This document shows positions 28,850 to 33,105 of a DNA stretch of 64,000 nt, piece after piece. A model generated the notes under the pieces. The model was given only the letters and a program-made list of their open reading frames with translations. It was not told where the DNA came from and ran no database searches. Source of the DNA: an uncultured Azospirillum sp. (GTDB taxonomy: Bacteria > Pseudomonadota > Alphaproteobacteria > CACIAM-22H2); assembly GCA_964416335.1 (NCBI GenBank), contig CAYQDN010000004.1, positions 518 through 64,517 of the forward strand. Reading direction: 5' to 3'. Positions within the stretch are counted from its first letter, which is position 1; each line of letters opens with the position of its first letter. Position numbers and translations under genes: made by a program.

Positions 28850-30538
28850 CTAGCCTGCTGCCTGCGCCTGGCGCTTGAGGGAAGCTTCGCGGATGGCGGA
28901 GATGGTCGTGCGCGTGGTGATGAGTTCGGGGTCGGTCTTGAGTTCGATGACGGCGGGCTTCTTCGCGGCGACCGCACGGCGGAAGGCGGGGAGGAAATCC
29001 TCGGTCTTCTCGACCGTCTCGCCGTGGCAGCCCAGCGCGCGCGCGAACGCCGCGAAATCCGGGTTCACGAGATCCGTACCCACCACACGTCCGGGATGCT
29101 CGCGCTCCTGGTGCATGCGGATCGTGCCGTAGATGCGGTTGTTGAAGACGAGGATGATGGGGGCCCCGCCATGCTGGAGGGCCGTGGCGATCTCCTGCCC
29201 CGACATCATGAAGCCGCCGTCGCCCACGCAGCCGATGACGAGGCGGCCGGGATGGACGAGCGAGGCGGCGACGGCCGCCGGGACCGAATAGCCCATCGCA
29301 CCGGACGTGGGGCCGACGAAGCGCGCCGGGCGCTTGTACGTGAGATACCGGTGCGGCCAGCCGGTGTGGTTGCCGGCATCGACCGTCACGGTGAAGGCGT
29401 CGGGCAGTTCCTCGGCAAGGGCCCGCAACGCGCGGCCCATGTCGAGGGCCCCGTTATAAGGTGTGGGGACGAGGTTCGCCTCGTACTGCGTGCGCGCTTC
29501 CTTCGTCCAGCCCGCCCACGGATGCGCGGCCAGCGGCTTGAGCTTCGCGGCGGCCAGCGCGAACAGCGAGGCGTTGGCCTGGATCGCGAGATCGGCGTTG
29601 TAGACGCGGCCGGTCTCCTCGGCCGAGGCGTGCACGTGGATCAGCTTCTGGCGCGGGCGCGGCGAGTCCAGCAGCGTATAGCCCTGCGTCGTCATCTCGC
29701 CCATGCGCGCACCCACGACGAGCAGCAGGTCGGCATCCTTCGCGCGCTGGGCCAATGCGGGCGTGGTCACCGTGCCGTATTCGCCGACATAGCAGCGGCT
29801 GTCGTTGGGGAACGCGTCGATGCGCCGGAAGCCGGCGGTGACGGCGATGTCGTTGGCTTCGGCGAACTGGCGGAAGGCGAGGCCGGCGGCGTCGGTCCAG
29901 CCCGATCCGCCGAGCAAGGCGAGCGGGCGCTTGGCGGCTGCCAGCATCGTCAGCATGCGGTCGAGATCGGCGGGCGACGGGGCCGCATGCACCGGACGAT
30001 AGGGATCGGCGTCGGCGACCGTCGCCATGTCGGTCAGCATGTCCTCGGGCAAGGCGAGCACGACCGGGCCGGGGCGGCCCGACGTCGCCACGTGGAACGC
30101 GCGCGCCATGTATTCCGGGATGCGTTCGGCAAGGTCGATCTGGGCGGCCCACTTCGCGACGGGGCCGAACATCTGGCGATAGTCGATCTCCTGGAACGCC
30201 TCGCGGTCCATCATGTCGCGCCCGACCTGGCCCACCAGCAGGATCATCGGGGTGGAATCCTGATAGGCGGTGTGCACGCCGACGGCGGCCTGGCAGGCCC
30301 CGGGCCCGCGCGTGACCATCGCGATGCCGGGCTTGCCGGTCAGCTTGCCGTAGGCGTCGGCCATGTTGGCGGCCCCCGCCTCGTGGCGCGAATTGACGAG
30401 CTTGATCGACGGGCTGTCGTGCAACGCGTCGAGCACTTCGAGATAGCTTTCGCCCGGCACGCAGAACGCCATGTCGGCCCCGTGCACGAGAAGCTGGTCG
30501 ACCAGGATCCGTCCGCCGCTGCGTGCCTTCGATGCCAT
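28850..30538 (-). CDS. Thiamine-pyrophosphate-dependent enzyme (acetolactate synthase / oxalyl-CoA decarboxylase-like family)
   Basis: ORF 28850..30538. TPP-binding motif [11 protein letters not shown]...NN. N-terminal Pyr domain. Ends 2 nt before the fhs start. Confidence 0.8.
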
Positions 30539-30645
30539 CTTCGATTCCCGTACGATTGAGCCAAAACGAGGCGCCAGTTAACGGCTGCGGGTGCACTTCG
30601 TCAATGGACGGGCCCCCGCGGCCCACGCTAGGCTGCGCCCGCATC

Positions 30646-31098
30646 ATGGACGACGTTCCGAAATGGATGTGGGAAGACGACCACAGCGCGTTCCGCGACC
30701 TGGTCGGTTACGGGCCCGTCGCGTGGCGCGAGTTCCACGCCGAACTCGCCCTCGATCTCGACGTGCGCCACCGCAACCGCTCGGGTATTGCACACGGCGG
30801 CGTCATCGCCACGCTGCTCGACGCCGCCGGCGGCTTCGCCGGCTGCTGGTGCCCCAATCCGGGGAACATAAGGCGCGCCTCCACGCTGTCGCTCAATTCG
30901 CAGTTCGTCGCACCCGCGCGCATCGGCCACCGCATCGTGGCCACGGGTACCGCACGCCCCGGCGGAAGGTCGATCTTCTTCGCGACGATGGAAATCGTCG
31001 ACGACGAAGGCAAGCTCGTCGCGACCGGCGAGGGTGTCTACAAATACCGCCCCGGCAGCGAGACCAGCGAAGGCGTGCCAAGGGACAAGGCGCCGTAG
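30646..31098 (+). CDS. PaaI/YbgC-type hotdog-fold thioesterase
   Basis: Within ORF 30523..31098. HRNRSGIAHGGVIATLLDAAGG (HGG motif). Alternative ATG at 30604. Confidence 0.7.
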   Translation: MDDVPKWMWEDDHSAFRDLVGYGPVAWREFHAELALDLDVRHRNRSGIAHGGVIATLLDAAGGFAGCWCPNPGNIRRASTLSLNSQFVAPARIGHRIVATGTARPGGRSIFFATMEIVDDEGKLVATGEGVYKYRPGSETSEGVPRDKAP

Positions 31099-31108
31099 CG
31101 GGACAGTC

Positions 31109-31642
31109 TCAGCTCTTCGCCAGCCCCAGCGCCCTGTCGATCGCGTCCGGATCGTTGGCGATCAGCCAGAGCGCGAGACGCGCGGCCGTATCGGGCCGTG
31201 CGCGTCCCTGTTCCCAGTTCTTGATCGTCGCGTCGGAAAAGCCGTAGCGCGCCGCGAACTCCGGCTGCGAGAGCCCGGTGCGCGCGCGAACCTCCGCCGG
31301 GACGATTTCGGGGGCCATCGGACGCACGACGCGAATGCCGAATGGCGCGAATGCGCCGCCGAGTGCCGTGTCGACTCCTGAAAGCGCCGTCGCCGCGCGG
31401 TGGAATTCGGCGATCCGGTTGAGAATCGAATGCGCCTCGCGCAGGGATACGGCGTGCGCCGTCAGCGCGTAAGCGAACTCGATGCGATGACCGTCGAACG
31501 CCTTGGGGTCCGCCAGTTCAAGCAGGACCGGAACGCGCGGACCGCCGATAACGGGTCGTTTTCGGGCGACGGCCGGGATTTGCCCCGGTCGTGCGAGTCG
31601 CGCCTTGAACAACGACAACTTCGACATCTGCCTTCTCCGCAA
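31109..31642 (-). CDS. HigA-2-like antitoxin (C-terminal XRE-type HTH); N-terminal extent uncertain
   Basis: C-terminal PAEVRARTGLSQPEFAARYGFSDATIKNWEQGRARPDTAARLALWLIANDPDAIDRAL matches the HigA-2/XRE antitoxin HTH. The N-terminal ~40 codons overlap the upstream toxin-like ORF in another frame. The only internal canonical start, GTG (VRPM), would leave just the HTH domain. Confidence 0.6.
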   Translation of the reverse strand: MRRRQMSKLSLFKARLARPGQIPAVARKRPVIGGPRVPVLLELADPKAFDGHRIEFAYALTAHAVSLREAHSILNRIAEFHRAATALSGVDTALGGAFAPFGIRVVRPMAPEIVPAEVRARTGLSQPEFAARYGFSDATIKNWEQGRARPDTAARLALWLIANDPDAIDRALGLAKS

Positions 31643-31841
31643 GAAATGCCATCACTCGTCTCAGCATGTCGGGCCCGACCTTGTTCGCACCCGGTCCTGC
31701 GACATGCAGCCCGATCAGGACAAGTTCCGCCGGCCGGAACTCGACTTCGGCGAAAAGCGTCAACGTCTTTCCGCCGATCTCGATTTCGAGCGTCACGAGA
31801 TTGTCGACGTCGAAAACGGCCGAGAACTTGGGATTCGCCAT
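31518..31841 (-). CDS. Putative HigB/Gp49 (RelE/ParE-superfamily)-like toxin, N-terminally short and possibly degenerate
   Basis: ORF 31518..31841. LEIEIGGKTLTLFAEVEFRPAELVLIGLHVAGP...DMLRRVMAFLAEKA resembles the ELRIxxGxxYRVYF...IVLLHVFxK...IxxAxxRL core of HigB/Gp49 toxins. TAA 2 codons upstream of the ATG. Arg-rich tail overlaps the antitoxin ORF. Confidence 0.4.
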   Translation of the reverse strand: MANPKFSAVFDVDNLVTLEIEIGGKTLTLFAEVEFRPAELVLIGLHVAGPGANKVGPDMLRRVMAFLAEKADVEVVVVQGATRTTGANPGRRPKTTRYRRSARSGPA

Positions 31842-31950
31842 CCTTATATCATATGCGCAACTTGCGTACTACATTCAAGCGGAGCAGGGGTGGTGCTCCG
31901 TTCCCGCGCCCCCTATAAACGGGGCTTCGCTTTTTCCCGCCGGAGCTTCC

Positions 31951-33105
31951 ATGTCCGTCCTGCCGCTGCGCGTCAAATCCTCCGCCCTGCTGGGCTCGCT
32001 GATCCGGGAGGTCTCAAAGGATTCGATGGATGCGCCCGGGCTGATCCCGCTGTGGTTCGGCGAGGGCTCGCGCTCGGCCCCGCCGGCCGTGGTCGCCGAG
32101 GCGCACAAGGCGATCGACCAGGGCTACCAGTTCTATTCGGCAAGTGCCGGGCGCGACGAATTGCGCGCGGCGATCGCGGCGTACGTGTCGAAGCTGCGCG
32201 GGATCAAGGTCGGGCCCGAGCGCATCGTCGTGACCACGTCGGGCAATTCGGCGATCCAGATGGCCCTGCAGCTGATCGTCGATCCGGGCGACAACGTGGT
32301 GTTCGCGGTCCCGCTGTGGCCGAATGCCGCCGACATGTGCGACCACCTCAACGGCGAGGTGCGGCGCGTGCCGCTCAAATGGGGCGACGCGGGCTGGTCG
32401 CTCGATCTCGAGCGGCTGTTCGCGGCATGCGACGGCCGGACCAAGGCGATCTTCCTCAACTCGCCCGGCAACCCGACGGGCTGGATGGCCACACCGGACG
32501 AGCTCAAGGCCGTGCTCGCCTTCTGCCGCAAGCGTGGCATCTGGGCGATCGGCGACGACGTCTACGAGCGCATCGTCTACGGGGCCGACCATTCGCCCTC
32601 GTTCCTCGATTTCGCGGGGCCGGAGGATGCGGTGATGAGCATCAATTCGTTCTCGAAGGGCTGGTGCATGACCGGCTGGCGGCTGGGCTGGCTCGTCGCC
32701 CCGGTCGCGGTCACCGACACGCTGGCCAAGATCATCGAGTTCAACACGTCGGGTGCCACCACCTTCGTGCAGCGCGCGGGCGTGGTCGCCCTGCAGCAGG
32801 AAGGCTTCGTGGCCGAGATCAAGGCCGAATACGCGCAGGCGCGCGACATCGCCTTCCAGCGCCTGTCGGCGATGGGAAGGGTGCGGCTGACCCGGCCGGA
32901 CGCCGCGTTCTACGCGTTTTTCGCGGTCGACGGGATGACGGACTCGGTGGAATACTGCAAGCGCATCGTCCGGGAGACGAAGGTGGGGCTCGCCCCCGGC
33001 CGCGCCTTCGGGCCCGAGGGCGAGGGCTTCATCCGCCTGTGCTTCGCCACCAGCCCGGCAAGGCTGAGCGAGGCGTTCGACCGGCTGGAGCCCCTGCTGC
33101 GTTAG
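31951..33105 (+). CDS. Pyridoxal-phosphate-dependent aminotransferase, class I/II (aspartate aminotransferase family)
   Basis: ATG 31951 with GGAG RBS, inside ORF 31666..33105. SFSKGWCMTGWRLGW (PLP-lysine SxSK) motif. NSPGNPTG motif. Confidence 0.8.
   Translation: MSVLPLRVKSSALLGSLIREVSKDSMDAPGLIPLWFGEGSRSAPPAVVAEAHKAIDQGYQFYSASAGRDELRAAIAAYVSKLRGIKVGPERIVVTTSGNSAIQMALQLIVDPGDNVVFAVPLWPNAADMCDHLNGEVRRVPLKWGDAGWSLDLERLFAACDGRTKAIFLNSPGNPTGWMATPDELKAVLAFCRKRGIWAIGDDVYERIVYGADHSPSFLDFAGPEDAVMSINSFSKGWCMTGWRLGWLVAPVAVTDTLAKIIEFNTSGATTFVQRAGVVALQQEGFVAEIKAEYAQARDIAFQRLSAMGRVRLTRPDAAFYAFFAVDGMTDSVEYCKRIVRETKVGLAPGRAFGPEGEGFIRLCFATSPARLSEAFDRLEPLLR

Follow-up and report, generated by a model that had tools for sequence, protein, structure and literature searches.

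A gene pair with an apparently dual-coding overlap, probably a toxin-antitoxin module derived from a polymorphic toxin-immunity cassette, in an uncultured Azospirillum sp.

A stretch of 64,000 nucleotides (nt) from contig CAYQDN010000004.1 of an uncultured Azospirillum sp. (assembly GCA_964416335.1), hereafter the window, carries on its reverse strand two overlapping genes, here called X and A, which form a bicistronic pair of a small toxin-type gene followed by a gene for a protein with a DNA-binding domain. We consider it probable that this pair is a toxin-first two-gene operon that descended from a polymorphic toxin-immunity cassette and now constitutes a type II-like toxin-antitoxin (TA) module. 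In the scheme proposed here, X would be a standalone copy of the C-terminal “warhead” domain of Rhs and CdiA proteins, and A would be its neutralizer, in which an immunity domain resembling the C-terminal domain (CTD) of ribosomal protein bL12 and ClpS is fused to a HigA2-like XRE helix-turn-helix (HTH). The HTH would bind the palindrome CGCAA-N-TTGCG in a promoter-like region ahead of X and thereby autoregulate the operon. Translation of X would take place on an mRNA with no leader or a very short one, and that of A independently from a GGAG/ATG within X, 110 nt before the X stop, with the internal start favoring an excess of antitoxin; the DNA of the RTTGAxPGR loop of X would also encode the disordered, Arg-rich tail of A (30 to 37 amino acids [aa]). 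A preliminary description of this DNA had reported open reading frames (ORFs) 31518..31841 (107 aa) and 31109..31642 (177 aa) with an overlap of ∼110 nt, which were present as described, and had interpreted them as a HigB/HigA-like pair with a shortened and decaying toxin. A toxin-first, TA-like pair was retained in our analysis, but the HigB/Gp49 identity of the toxin was not; the second alternative offered in that description, a pair with unusual overlapping coding, matched the data.

Gene X and its protein family

X is a real gene under purifying selection. Its ORF was intact at 107 codons, without a single insertion or deletion, in all eight full-length lineages (the window plus gap-free orthologues in L001, L004, L005, L010, L011, L020, and L021, at 47 to 93% identity), and the start codon occupied the same position in each (ATG in seven, GTG in L020); two X-bearing lineages were Tagaea sp. 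metagenome-assembled genomes (MAGs). The preliminary description had X lacking about 25 N-terminal residues, whereas all eight full-length orthologues were 107 aa from this common start. The TAA that it placed two codons upstream of the ATG proved to be out of frame, the nearest in-frame upstream stop being a TAG 10 codons 5′. Outside the overlap, the proportion of synonymous differences (pS) between close pairs was two to four times that of nonsynonymous differences (pN) in the X frame only (pS/pN of 0.31/0.13, 0.33/0.09, and 0.53/0.17), and pN/pS for X among close pairs was ∼0.3 to 0.4. A gene so constant in length and under such selection does not correspond to the decaying toxin initially supposed. 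X itself was not found in a database of 5.8 × 10^9 proteins by single-sequence, word-indexed search, nor were any relatives, and it was therefore never called in the source genome; genes of the X type have been annotated by the Joint Genome Institute (JGI) in two lineages and by RefSeq on some plasmids. GC content at third codon positions (GC3) was 0.73 in X versus 0.90 to 0.93 in the neighboring genes, and GC content dipped to a local minimum of 0.59, which is consistent with a foreign origin. This deviant composition is in part why X was left uncalled.

The family to which X belongs became visible only by exhaustive phmmer searching of 1.84 × 10^9 cluster representatives (E ≤ 10−3) and then by profile search: the former yielded 257 relatives among the representatives and the latter 129 further database proteins, all labeled “hypothetical” and without Pfam domains, while a scan of metagenome DNA yielded just one extra, distant locus. 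Most relatives were 95 to 135 aa long. In several multidomain proteins, a domain of ∼95 aa homologous to X formed the extreme C terminus, following RHS repeats (P0094: RHS_repeat, 1.7 × 10−28; X domain at residues 567 to 647 of 652), a PT-HINT domain (P0251: 3 × 10−19), or the body of a DUF637/hemagglutinin-type protein (P0138), and a further fragment with the domain began at an Rhs “DPxGL” junction (P0045). In Roseibium the domain lay in an orphan array 3′ of a 2,386-aa TPS/Fil_haemagg protein, with a 74-aa gene after it, and on another contig it lay among CdiA_C cassettes, with a 73-aa gene after it; small genes (73 to 102 aa) directly followed the X domain at the loci L013, L017, L018, and L030. 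A C-terminal domain placed after an RHS core, PT-HINT, or hemagglutinin region and accompanied by a small downstream gene is the arrangement diagnostic of polymorphic toxin-immunity systems (Zhang et al. 2012, PMC3482391). Judged by these architectures, the X family is an uncurated C-terminal toxin domain of Rhs/CdiA-type polymorphic toxins. X of the window comprises the toxin-type domain alone (107 aa), without an N-terminal secretion or trafficking region. It is thus derived from polymorphic toxins as a standalone protein and does not itself count as one.

Members of the family shared the motif GxH[VI]xGPGxNxxG ... DV[DE]xxV[IV]xGAxRTTGAxPGRxPxxxRFRR, also written as GxH[IV]xGPGxNxxG ... DVDExxIEGAxRTTGAxPGRxPRPxRFxR; R83 and G86 (X numbering) were invariant in both alignments, and H46 was present in at least 90% of sequences. 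When both products were searched with the Pfam and NCBIfam models, only the HTH of A was matched (HTH_31 in Pfam). X had zero matches among Pfam, NCBIfam, PADLOC, and PHROGs models, and the X-family profile recovered nothing meaningful from PDB sequences. The supposed core of Gp49/HigB-type toxins was not recovered either: X and 65 family members gave no match to HigB, Gp49, RelE, or ParE at E ≤ 1. Among the phmmer matches, P0016, a highly repetitive, secreted-looking protein of 976 aa, matched only residues 7 to 51 of X, in five stretches, which is probably a resemblance between beta-rich repeats and not homology to the toxin domain. In a Kiloniellales MAG (L012, 2965..3400), an X-like gene changes frame after GPGANIVG and is split as a result, whether through a frameshift or through an indel in the assembly; its partner had the immunity domain without the HTH.

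Evidence for coding in both frames of the overlap

Codons 72 to 107 of X, which include the invariant RTTGAxPGR motif, correspond to residues 1 to 37 of A in the +1 frame. The preliminary description held that the N-terminal 40 codons of the antitoxin and the tail of the toxin could not both be real, whereas the evidence from the overlap favors coding in both frames. Across the eight full-length lineages of the Tagaea clade, 32% of columns were variable in the overlap versus 64% in the X-only region and 53% in the A domain, and three-base periodicity was lost within the overlap. Wobble sites of X were variable in 42% of cases inside the overlap versus 85% outside (Fisher P = 1.1 × 10−5), and those of A in 40% versus 78% (P = 1.8 × 10−4); X-frame pS was reduced 3- to 6-fold (0.05 versus 0.31; 0.09 versus 0.53). 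The ATG of A and the GGAG 7 nt upstream of it were kept in nine of nine Tagaea-clade lineages. This ATG demands a GAT codon for Asp72 of X; GAT was used there in all nine, compared to 31% of other X Asp codons.

Both frames were open, with conserved starts and stops, in the nine Tagaea-clade lineages and in eight distant HTH-fused relatives. Every distant HTH-fused member (two metagenomic ones included) had an in-frame ATG 104 to 122 nt before the X stop, each equivalent ATG was preceded by GGAG or GAAGG, and the N terminus of A was conserved as M.SSL+ERFARLGP. X-frame pS among these relatives was 0.13 to 0.49 in the overlap versus 0.51 to 0.83 outside it, in 15 of 15 pairs from plasmids and metagenomes. 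Relatives with a partner consisting of the immunity domain only served as a control: in these the two genes overlapped by 0 to 4 nt or were separated by a short spacer, the region encoding the C-terminal motif of X was saturated with synonymous changes (pS of 0.70 to 0.92), and the +1 frame contained stops. Taken together, translation appears to proceed in both frames across the overlap, and both readings appear to be under selection, which would make this a well-controlled bacterial case of a long (104 to 122 nt), conserved dual-coding overlap, in which the DNA for the most conserved loop of a putative toxin also encodes part of its antitoxin.

The start of A was located by comparison with its homologues. 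Twelve were found in the protein database, six of them 171 to 173 aa long (63 to 100% identity), and all six full-size homologues began MSKLS at the ATG equivalent to position 31627. The TTG at 31642, five codons further upstream, was used by no homologue. Canonical starts in the A frame occur at 31642, 31627, 31618, and 31612, and the next are GTG 31327 and ATG 31318. A bare-HTH antitoxin initiated at GTG 31327 was considered and rejected, as it would remove a conserved domain that is confidently folded in the structural model (predicted local distance difference test [pLDDT] of >90).

Two other accounts of the overlap deserve consideration. It is rather unlikely that X is real while the first 37 codons of A go untranslated, with A starting instead either on a non-canonical codon around Val33/Leu35 or through termination-reinitiation, at the TGA of X, and with conservation of the +1 frame reflecting the X motif only. 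Predicted disorder of the A tail would fit such an account, as would the invariance of the X motif where there is no overlap and the position at which A begins in immunity-only relatives and some gene calls, namely, at the domain boundary (MARVVF.., M/V-FVLRLP); P0004 and P0005 have a Met there. However, the window and the seven other full-length relatives have no ATG, GTG, or TTG at all between 31612 and 31327, the ATG and GGAG are kept in all HTH-fused lineages alongside the fixed GAT of Asp72, and synonymous divergence in the X frame is 2 to 6 times lower in the overlap, whereas the same region is saturated and interrupted by +1-frame stops in relatives without one. It is very unlikely that X and A are a single fusion protein produced by programmed +1 (or −2) frameshifting, or one gene broken by an assembly frameshift, even though the two ORFs are adjacent, share a strand, and overlap at length. 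The preliminary description had foreseen, as evidence against its own interpretation, an X without a significant RelE/ParE/HigB match together with orthologues forming a single longer XRE protein; the missing match was borne out, but the orthologues keep two overlapping ORFs. The same frame relation recurred in >15 independent assemblies, complete plasmids included, and sequencing error is therefore excluded. The stop of X and the Shine-Dalgarno-like sequence and ATG belonging to A were conserved, toxin and partner were always separate proteins in CdiA/Rhs contexts, and no slippery motif was noticed on reading the overlap, for which no formal search was made.

Protein A, the upstream region, and a possible activity of X

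The AlphaFold2 model of A (pLDDT 83.4) had three parts: a disordered stretch at residues 1 to 30 (pLDDT 44 to 58) within an Arg/Ala/Pro-rich tail of 30 to 37 aa, a beta-alpha-alpha-beta-alpha-beta domain at residues 32 to 101 (pLDDT 92 to 95), and a helical HTH at residues 107 to 170. The HigA-2/XRE C terminus recognized in the preliminary description was confirmed: Pfam HTH_31 matched above its cut-off (E = 1.3 × 10−7), and the best Foldseek matches were structures of Vibrio cholerae HigA2, namely, 5jaa and 5j9i (30% identity, root mean square deviation of 1.8 to 2.0 Å) and 8a0x, which represent the HigA2 CTD and the HigBA2 complex. MqsA-family (TIGR03830), NadS, and related NCBIfam models matched A only at residues 116 to 169 and below their cut-offs. 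In the HTH, pN/pS was ∼0.1. Residues 32 to 101 aligned with the 73- to 102-aa proteins encoded downstream of X domains in L013, L017, L018, and L030, which comprise CdiA/Rhs-type and orphan loci, and the middle domain of A is therefore taken to be the immunity domain cognate to X, which in this protein is joined to an HTH. The immunity domain resembles the bL12 CTD and ClpS in its modeled topology, a likeness that is consistent across searches but marginal: the partner in L013 matched Pfam Ribosomal_L12 at E = 0.0094 (16.7 bits versus a cut-off of 25.9), the top three PDB matches of the immunity-domain profile were all bL12 CTDs (E of ∼0.01), hhalign against Escherichia coli RplL (sequence entered by hand) gave E = 2.2 × 10−4 at a probability of 45%, and the ClpS fold matched the middle domain of A at E = 0.14. 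A bL12-CTD-like immunity fold would be a testable lead to the target of the toxin.

Ahead of X, a 30-nt block, TTGAAT-N19-TATGAT, was nearly invariant in the eight lineages, while the flanking intergenic DNA and the X protein itself (down to 47% identity) diverged. The two hexamers are plausibly a promoter. Between them lies a palindrome whose CGCAA-N-TTGCG half-sites were invariant in all eight lineages; only its central base varied (G to C in L005), with symmetry kept. This would make it a candidate operator for a dimer of A; the 5+5 palindrome was not picked up by the repeat finder. TATGAT ends 6 nt before the ATG of X in the window, the X start codon was 5 to 9 nt past TATGAT in seven of eight lineages (the −10-like element of L020 is TATACC), and no Shine-Dalgarno sequence for X was conserved across lineages. 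From the spacing, the X message may be leaderless or nearly so. Further upstream, at 31908..31935 (+) in the divergent intergenic region and just 5′ of the aminotransferase start at 31951, a GC hairpin, GCCCC-CTATAAAC-GGGGC followed by TTCGCTTTTT, was flagged as terminator-like by the scan, and its core (GTTTATAGGG on the minus strand) was kept at every related locus. Possible explanations are the −10 element of the aminotransferase promoter, a leader/attenuator element, or a chance match.

The AlphaFold2 model of X (pLDDT 80.8) began with four antiparallel strands, followed by a helix, one more strand, and a Gly/Pro/Arg loop that leads into the last strand (beta4-alpha-beta-beta). Its top 50 Foldseek matches in the PDB were all GNAT acetyltransferases, at low significance (E = 0.02 to 0.08; template modeling [TM] score of 0.35 to 0.5), and with no RelE or HigB structure among them the model argues against the RelE-like fold that a HigB toxin would have. 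H46-x-x-G-x-G of X has the spacing and place of the pyrophosphate loop of GNAT motif A (Q/R-x-x-G-x-G/A). We tentatively suggest that X could be a minimal GNAT-like, coenzyme A (CoA)- or nucleotide-binding enzyme that modifies the translation apparatus, though we hold this to be less likely than not. A more specific proposal is speculative and probably wrong as it stands: that X, at ∼100 aa and GNAT-like, uses the bL12 CTD as its target in the translation machinery or as its route to it, that the immunity domain mimics the target or docking site, and that the tail of A, overprinted on a catalytic RTTGAxPGR loop of the toxin, acts as a degron or active-site plug. If true, the active site of the toxin and the evolution of its antitoxin would be physically locked in one stretch of DNA. 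Searches of the literature for polymorphic toxins of GNAT type, for immunity proteins resembling bL12, and for extended overlaps within TA pairs returned nothing pertinent.

Plasmid copies, alternative explanations, and known systems

Searching by tblastn placed the same module on Sulfitobacter, Gluconacetobacter, Komagataeibacter, Kozakia, and Lichenicola plasmids, surrounded by HicB, VapC/PilT, RelE/ParE, and MazE genes. Comparison of the RefSeq/GenBank annotations of these plasmids (L022, L023, and L025 to L029) revealed that the Prokaryotic Genome Annotation Pipeline (PGAP) usually retains the long A alone. On two Sulfitobacter plasmids A is labeled “MqsA family antitoxin,” and the plasmids of G. 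diazotrophicus and K. xylinus list it as a “hypothetical protein”; in Kozakia and Lichenicola, PGAP retains X with a 5′-truncated A, and K. oboediens pKOB3 is the sole case in which both overlapping genes were annotated. Gene callers drop one of the two because of the long overlap and the lack of a conserved Shine-Dalgarno sequence for X. The result is a systematic annotation failure: most often the antitoxin is reported alone, and otherwise the toxin appears next to an antitoxin that is cut short. Many orphan “MqsA-family antitoxins” in Alphaproteobacteria may hide an unannotated toxin gene and represent complete modules. On plasmid RHOApc of Rhodovastum atsumiense (L024, 1881..2210), the X-like ORF is interrupted by several in-frame stops, whereas the A-like HTH gene that overlaps it remains intact at 170 aa; IS630 transposases adjoin. 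To judge from its ORFs, this copy is a true case of decayed toxin and retained antitoxin, a state that is not present in the window.

Several observations weigh against the interpretation of the window pair as a TA module of cassette origin with a GNAT-like toxin. The position of the locus between aminotransferase and thioesterase genes was constant in all Tagaea-clade relatives, implying vertical inheritance, and mobile TA modules do not typically behave in this way. Owing to the 19-nt spacer, no canonical sigma-70 site ahead of X was returned by the promoter scan. The similarity of the immunity domain to the bL12 CTD is marginal (E of ∼0.01, and below the Pfam cut-off), and the GNAT likeness of X is weak (TM score of 0.35 to 0.5), with no sequence-profile signal for GNAT in Pfam (Acetyltransf at E ≤ 1 across 65 family members) or the PDB; X also lacks the C-terminal half of a GNAT, its domain being ∼60% of GNAT length. 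Conservation of the N-terminal tail of A is in part a passive effect of the invariant motif of X, and a shorter A could begin at a GTG that several distant relatives have close to where the immunity domain starts. Toxicity of X, neutralization by A, and binding of the palindrome by A are predictions from sequence.

Stable vertical inheritance at one chromosomal site, together with the failure of curated toxin models to match X, would also suit an X that is no toxin at all but a small, harmless enzyme or adaptor, with an XRE regulator either controlling it or acting as its partner, and with another role at Rhs/CdiA C termini. We regard this as unlikely, since polymorphic toxins are defined by just such a layout, in which the domain ends a protein with an RHS core, PT-HINT, or hemagglutinin region and a small gene comes immediately next (Zhang et al. 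2012, PMC3482391), since plasmid copies reside in TA-rich addiction regions, and since in one copy the toxin gene alone has decayed and the partner is retained. A HigB/Gp49-type toxin that has lost its N terminus and is decaying beside a retained HigA antitoxin scarcely merits credence. The HTH of A is HigA2-like, X has no entry in the protein database and is left out of most annotations, and the Rhodovastum plasmid has a stop-riddled X beside an intact A, all of which would be expected of such a remnant. However, neither X nor its 65 relatives matched a HigB, Gp49, RelE, or ParE model, the predicted topology of X is non-RelE with fold matches that are GNAT-like only, and length and start position were identical in the eight full-length lineages under purifying selection; for the window, decay of a HigB toxin was refuted by these intact, selected orthologues. 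A TA module derived from a polymorphic toxin-immunity cassette thus remains the reading that we prefer.

Coordinates of the pair and its associated features are given in Table 1.

Table 1. Features of the X/A locus (positions in the window)
Feature	Position	Strand	Remarks
Gene X	31518..31841	−	107 aa, ATG start; absent from source annotation
Gene A	31109..31627	−	172 aa from ATG 31627
Longest A-frame ORF	31109..31642	−	177 aa from TTG 31642 (ORF listing)
X/A overlap	31518..31627	−	110 nt; A is in the +1 frame relative to X
Shine-Dalgarno-like GGAG	31635..31638	−	Inside X (codons Ala68-Glu69), 7 nt 5′ of the ATG of A
A residues 32-101, putative immunity (toxin-neutralizing) domain	31325..31534	−	Predicted bL12 CTD/ClpS-like topology
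A residues 107-170, XRE-type HTH	31118..31309	−	HigA2/NadS/MqsA-C-terminal-like
Putative upstream control region	31848..31878	−	TTGAAT (31878..31873), 19 nt, TATGAT (31853..31848); conserved
Palindrome T-CGCAA-N-TTGCG-A	31854..31868 (core 31866..31856)	−	Candidate operator; read directly from the sequence

Loci with A homologues shared the order aminotransferase, a “gap” of ∼320 nt, A, 4HBT thioesterase, and thiamine pyrophosphate (TPP) enzyme; in every lineage the “gap” was occupied by the intact X ORF. In the window, the 4HBT/PaaI-type thioesterase gene (30523..31098, +) is convergent with A (31109, −), and their stops lie 10 nt apart, which therefore leaves no space for a terminator between the convergent genes; in L005 to L009 the two stop codons overlap. 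In L019 (624..1196) and L020 (2880..3434), an inserted DUF488 gene separates A from the gene for the 4HBT thioesterase, an insertion that is absent from the window and its closest relatives.

Among known systems, V. cholerae HigB2-HigA2 and other toxin-first type II operons (higBA, mqsRA, and hicAB) share with the window pair the order of toxin gene first and antitoxin second. HigA2, the best structural match to A, likewise has a C-terminal XRE HTH with the toxin-neutralizing part N-terminal to it, and a palindromic candidate operator in the promoter region is a further likeness. In contrast, the HigB2 toxin is of the HigB/RelE type and unrelated to X, the neutralizing part of A is predicted to combine a disordered tail with a folded domain of the bL12-CTD/ClpS type instead of consisting of a disordered segment only, and the genes of toxin-first type II operons overlap by few bases or none, compared to 110 nt here. 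The C-terminal HTH of A also resembles the CTD of MqsA (TIGR03830, E = 2.3 × 10−7; 3fmy was among the fold matches), and the toxin-first order is shared. However, MqsA has an N-terminal zinc-binding CxxCG-CxxCG domain, whereas A is without Cys pairs; A scored 30.6 bits against a TIGR03830 cut-off of 61.8, at model positions 71 to 124 only; and the partner of A is not MqsR.

TacT, AtaT, and KacT are GNAT-fold type II toxins of ∼160 to 175 aa that pair with ribbon-helix-helix (RHH) antitoxins. The model of X weakly resembles them in its GNAT-like beta-sheet/helix core, and its H-x-x-G-x-G loop is placed where GNATs have motif A, which binds the pyrophosphate of acetyl-CoA, but X is far shorter at 107 aa and is without the helix that follows strand beta5 in GNATs. 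Helices alpha1 and alpha2 at the N terminus of GNATs are presumably absent as well, given the topology of GNATs and the length of X. The antitoxins of those systems are RHH/DUF1778 proteins, whereas the window pair has an HTH and an immunity domain.

Rhs and CdiA/CdiI pairs offer the comparison from which the proposed origin is drawn. A search of the catalogue of polymorphic toxins of Zhang et al. (2012, PMC3482391) under the keywords acetyltransferase, ClpS, and L12 returned nothing, and the X toxin and immunity families matched no Pfam model. The X domain is a C-terminal module of RHS, PT-HINT, and hemagglutinin-type proteins, occurring also in orphan cassettes beside cdiA, and the small cognate gene that always follows it is homologous to the middle domain of A. 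The window pair departs from them in that X is without a trafficking or repeat region, its partner has an HTH, and the pair is chromosomal, autoregulated-looking, and vertically inherited. If our interpretation is correct, two uncurated families, a toxin and its immunity partner, would be added to the repertoire common to Rhs/CdiA weapons and intracellular TA modules, and the fusion of an immunity domain to a HigA2-like repressor would represent a traceable step from weapon to TA module.

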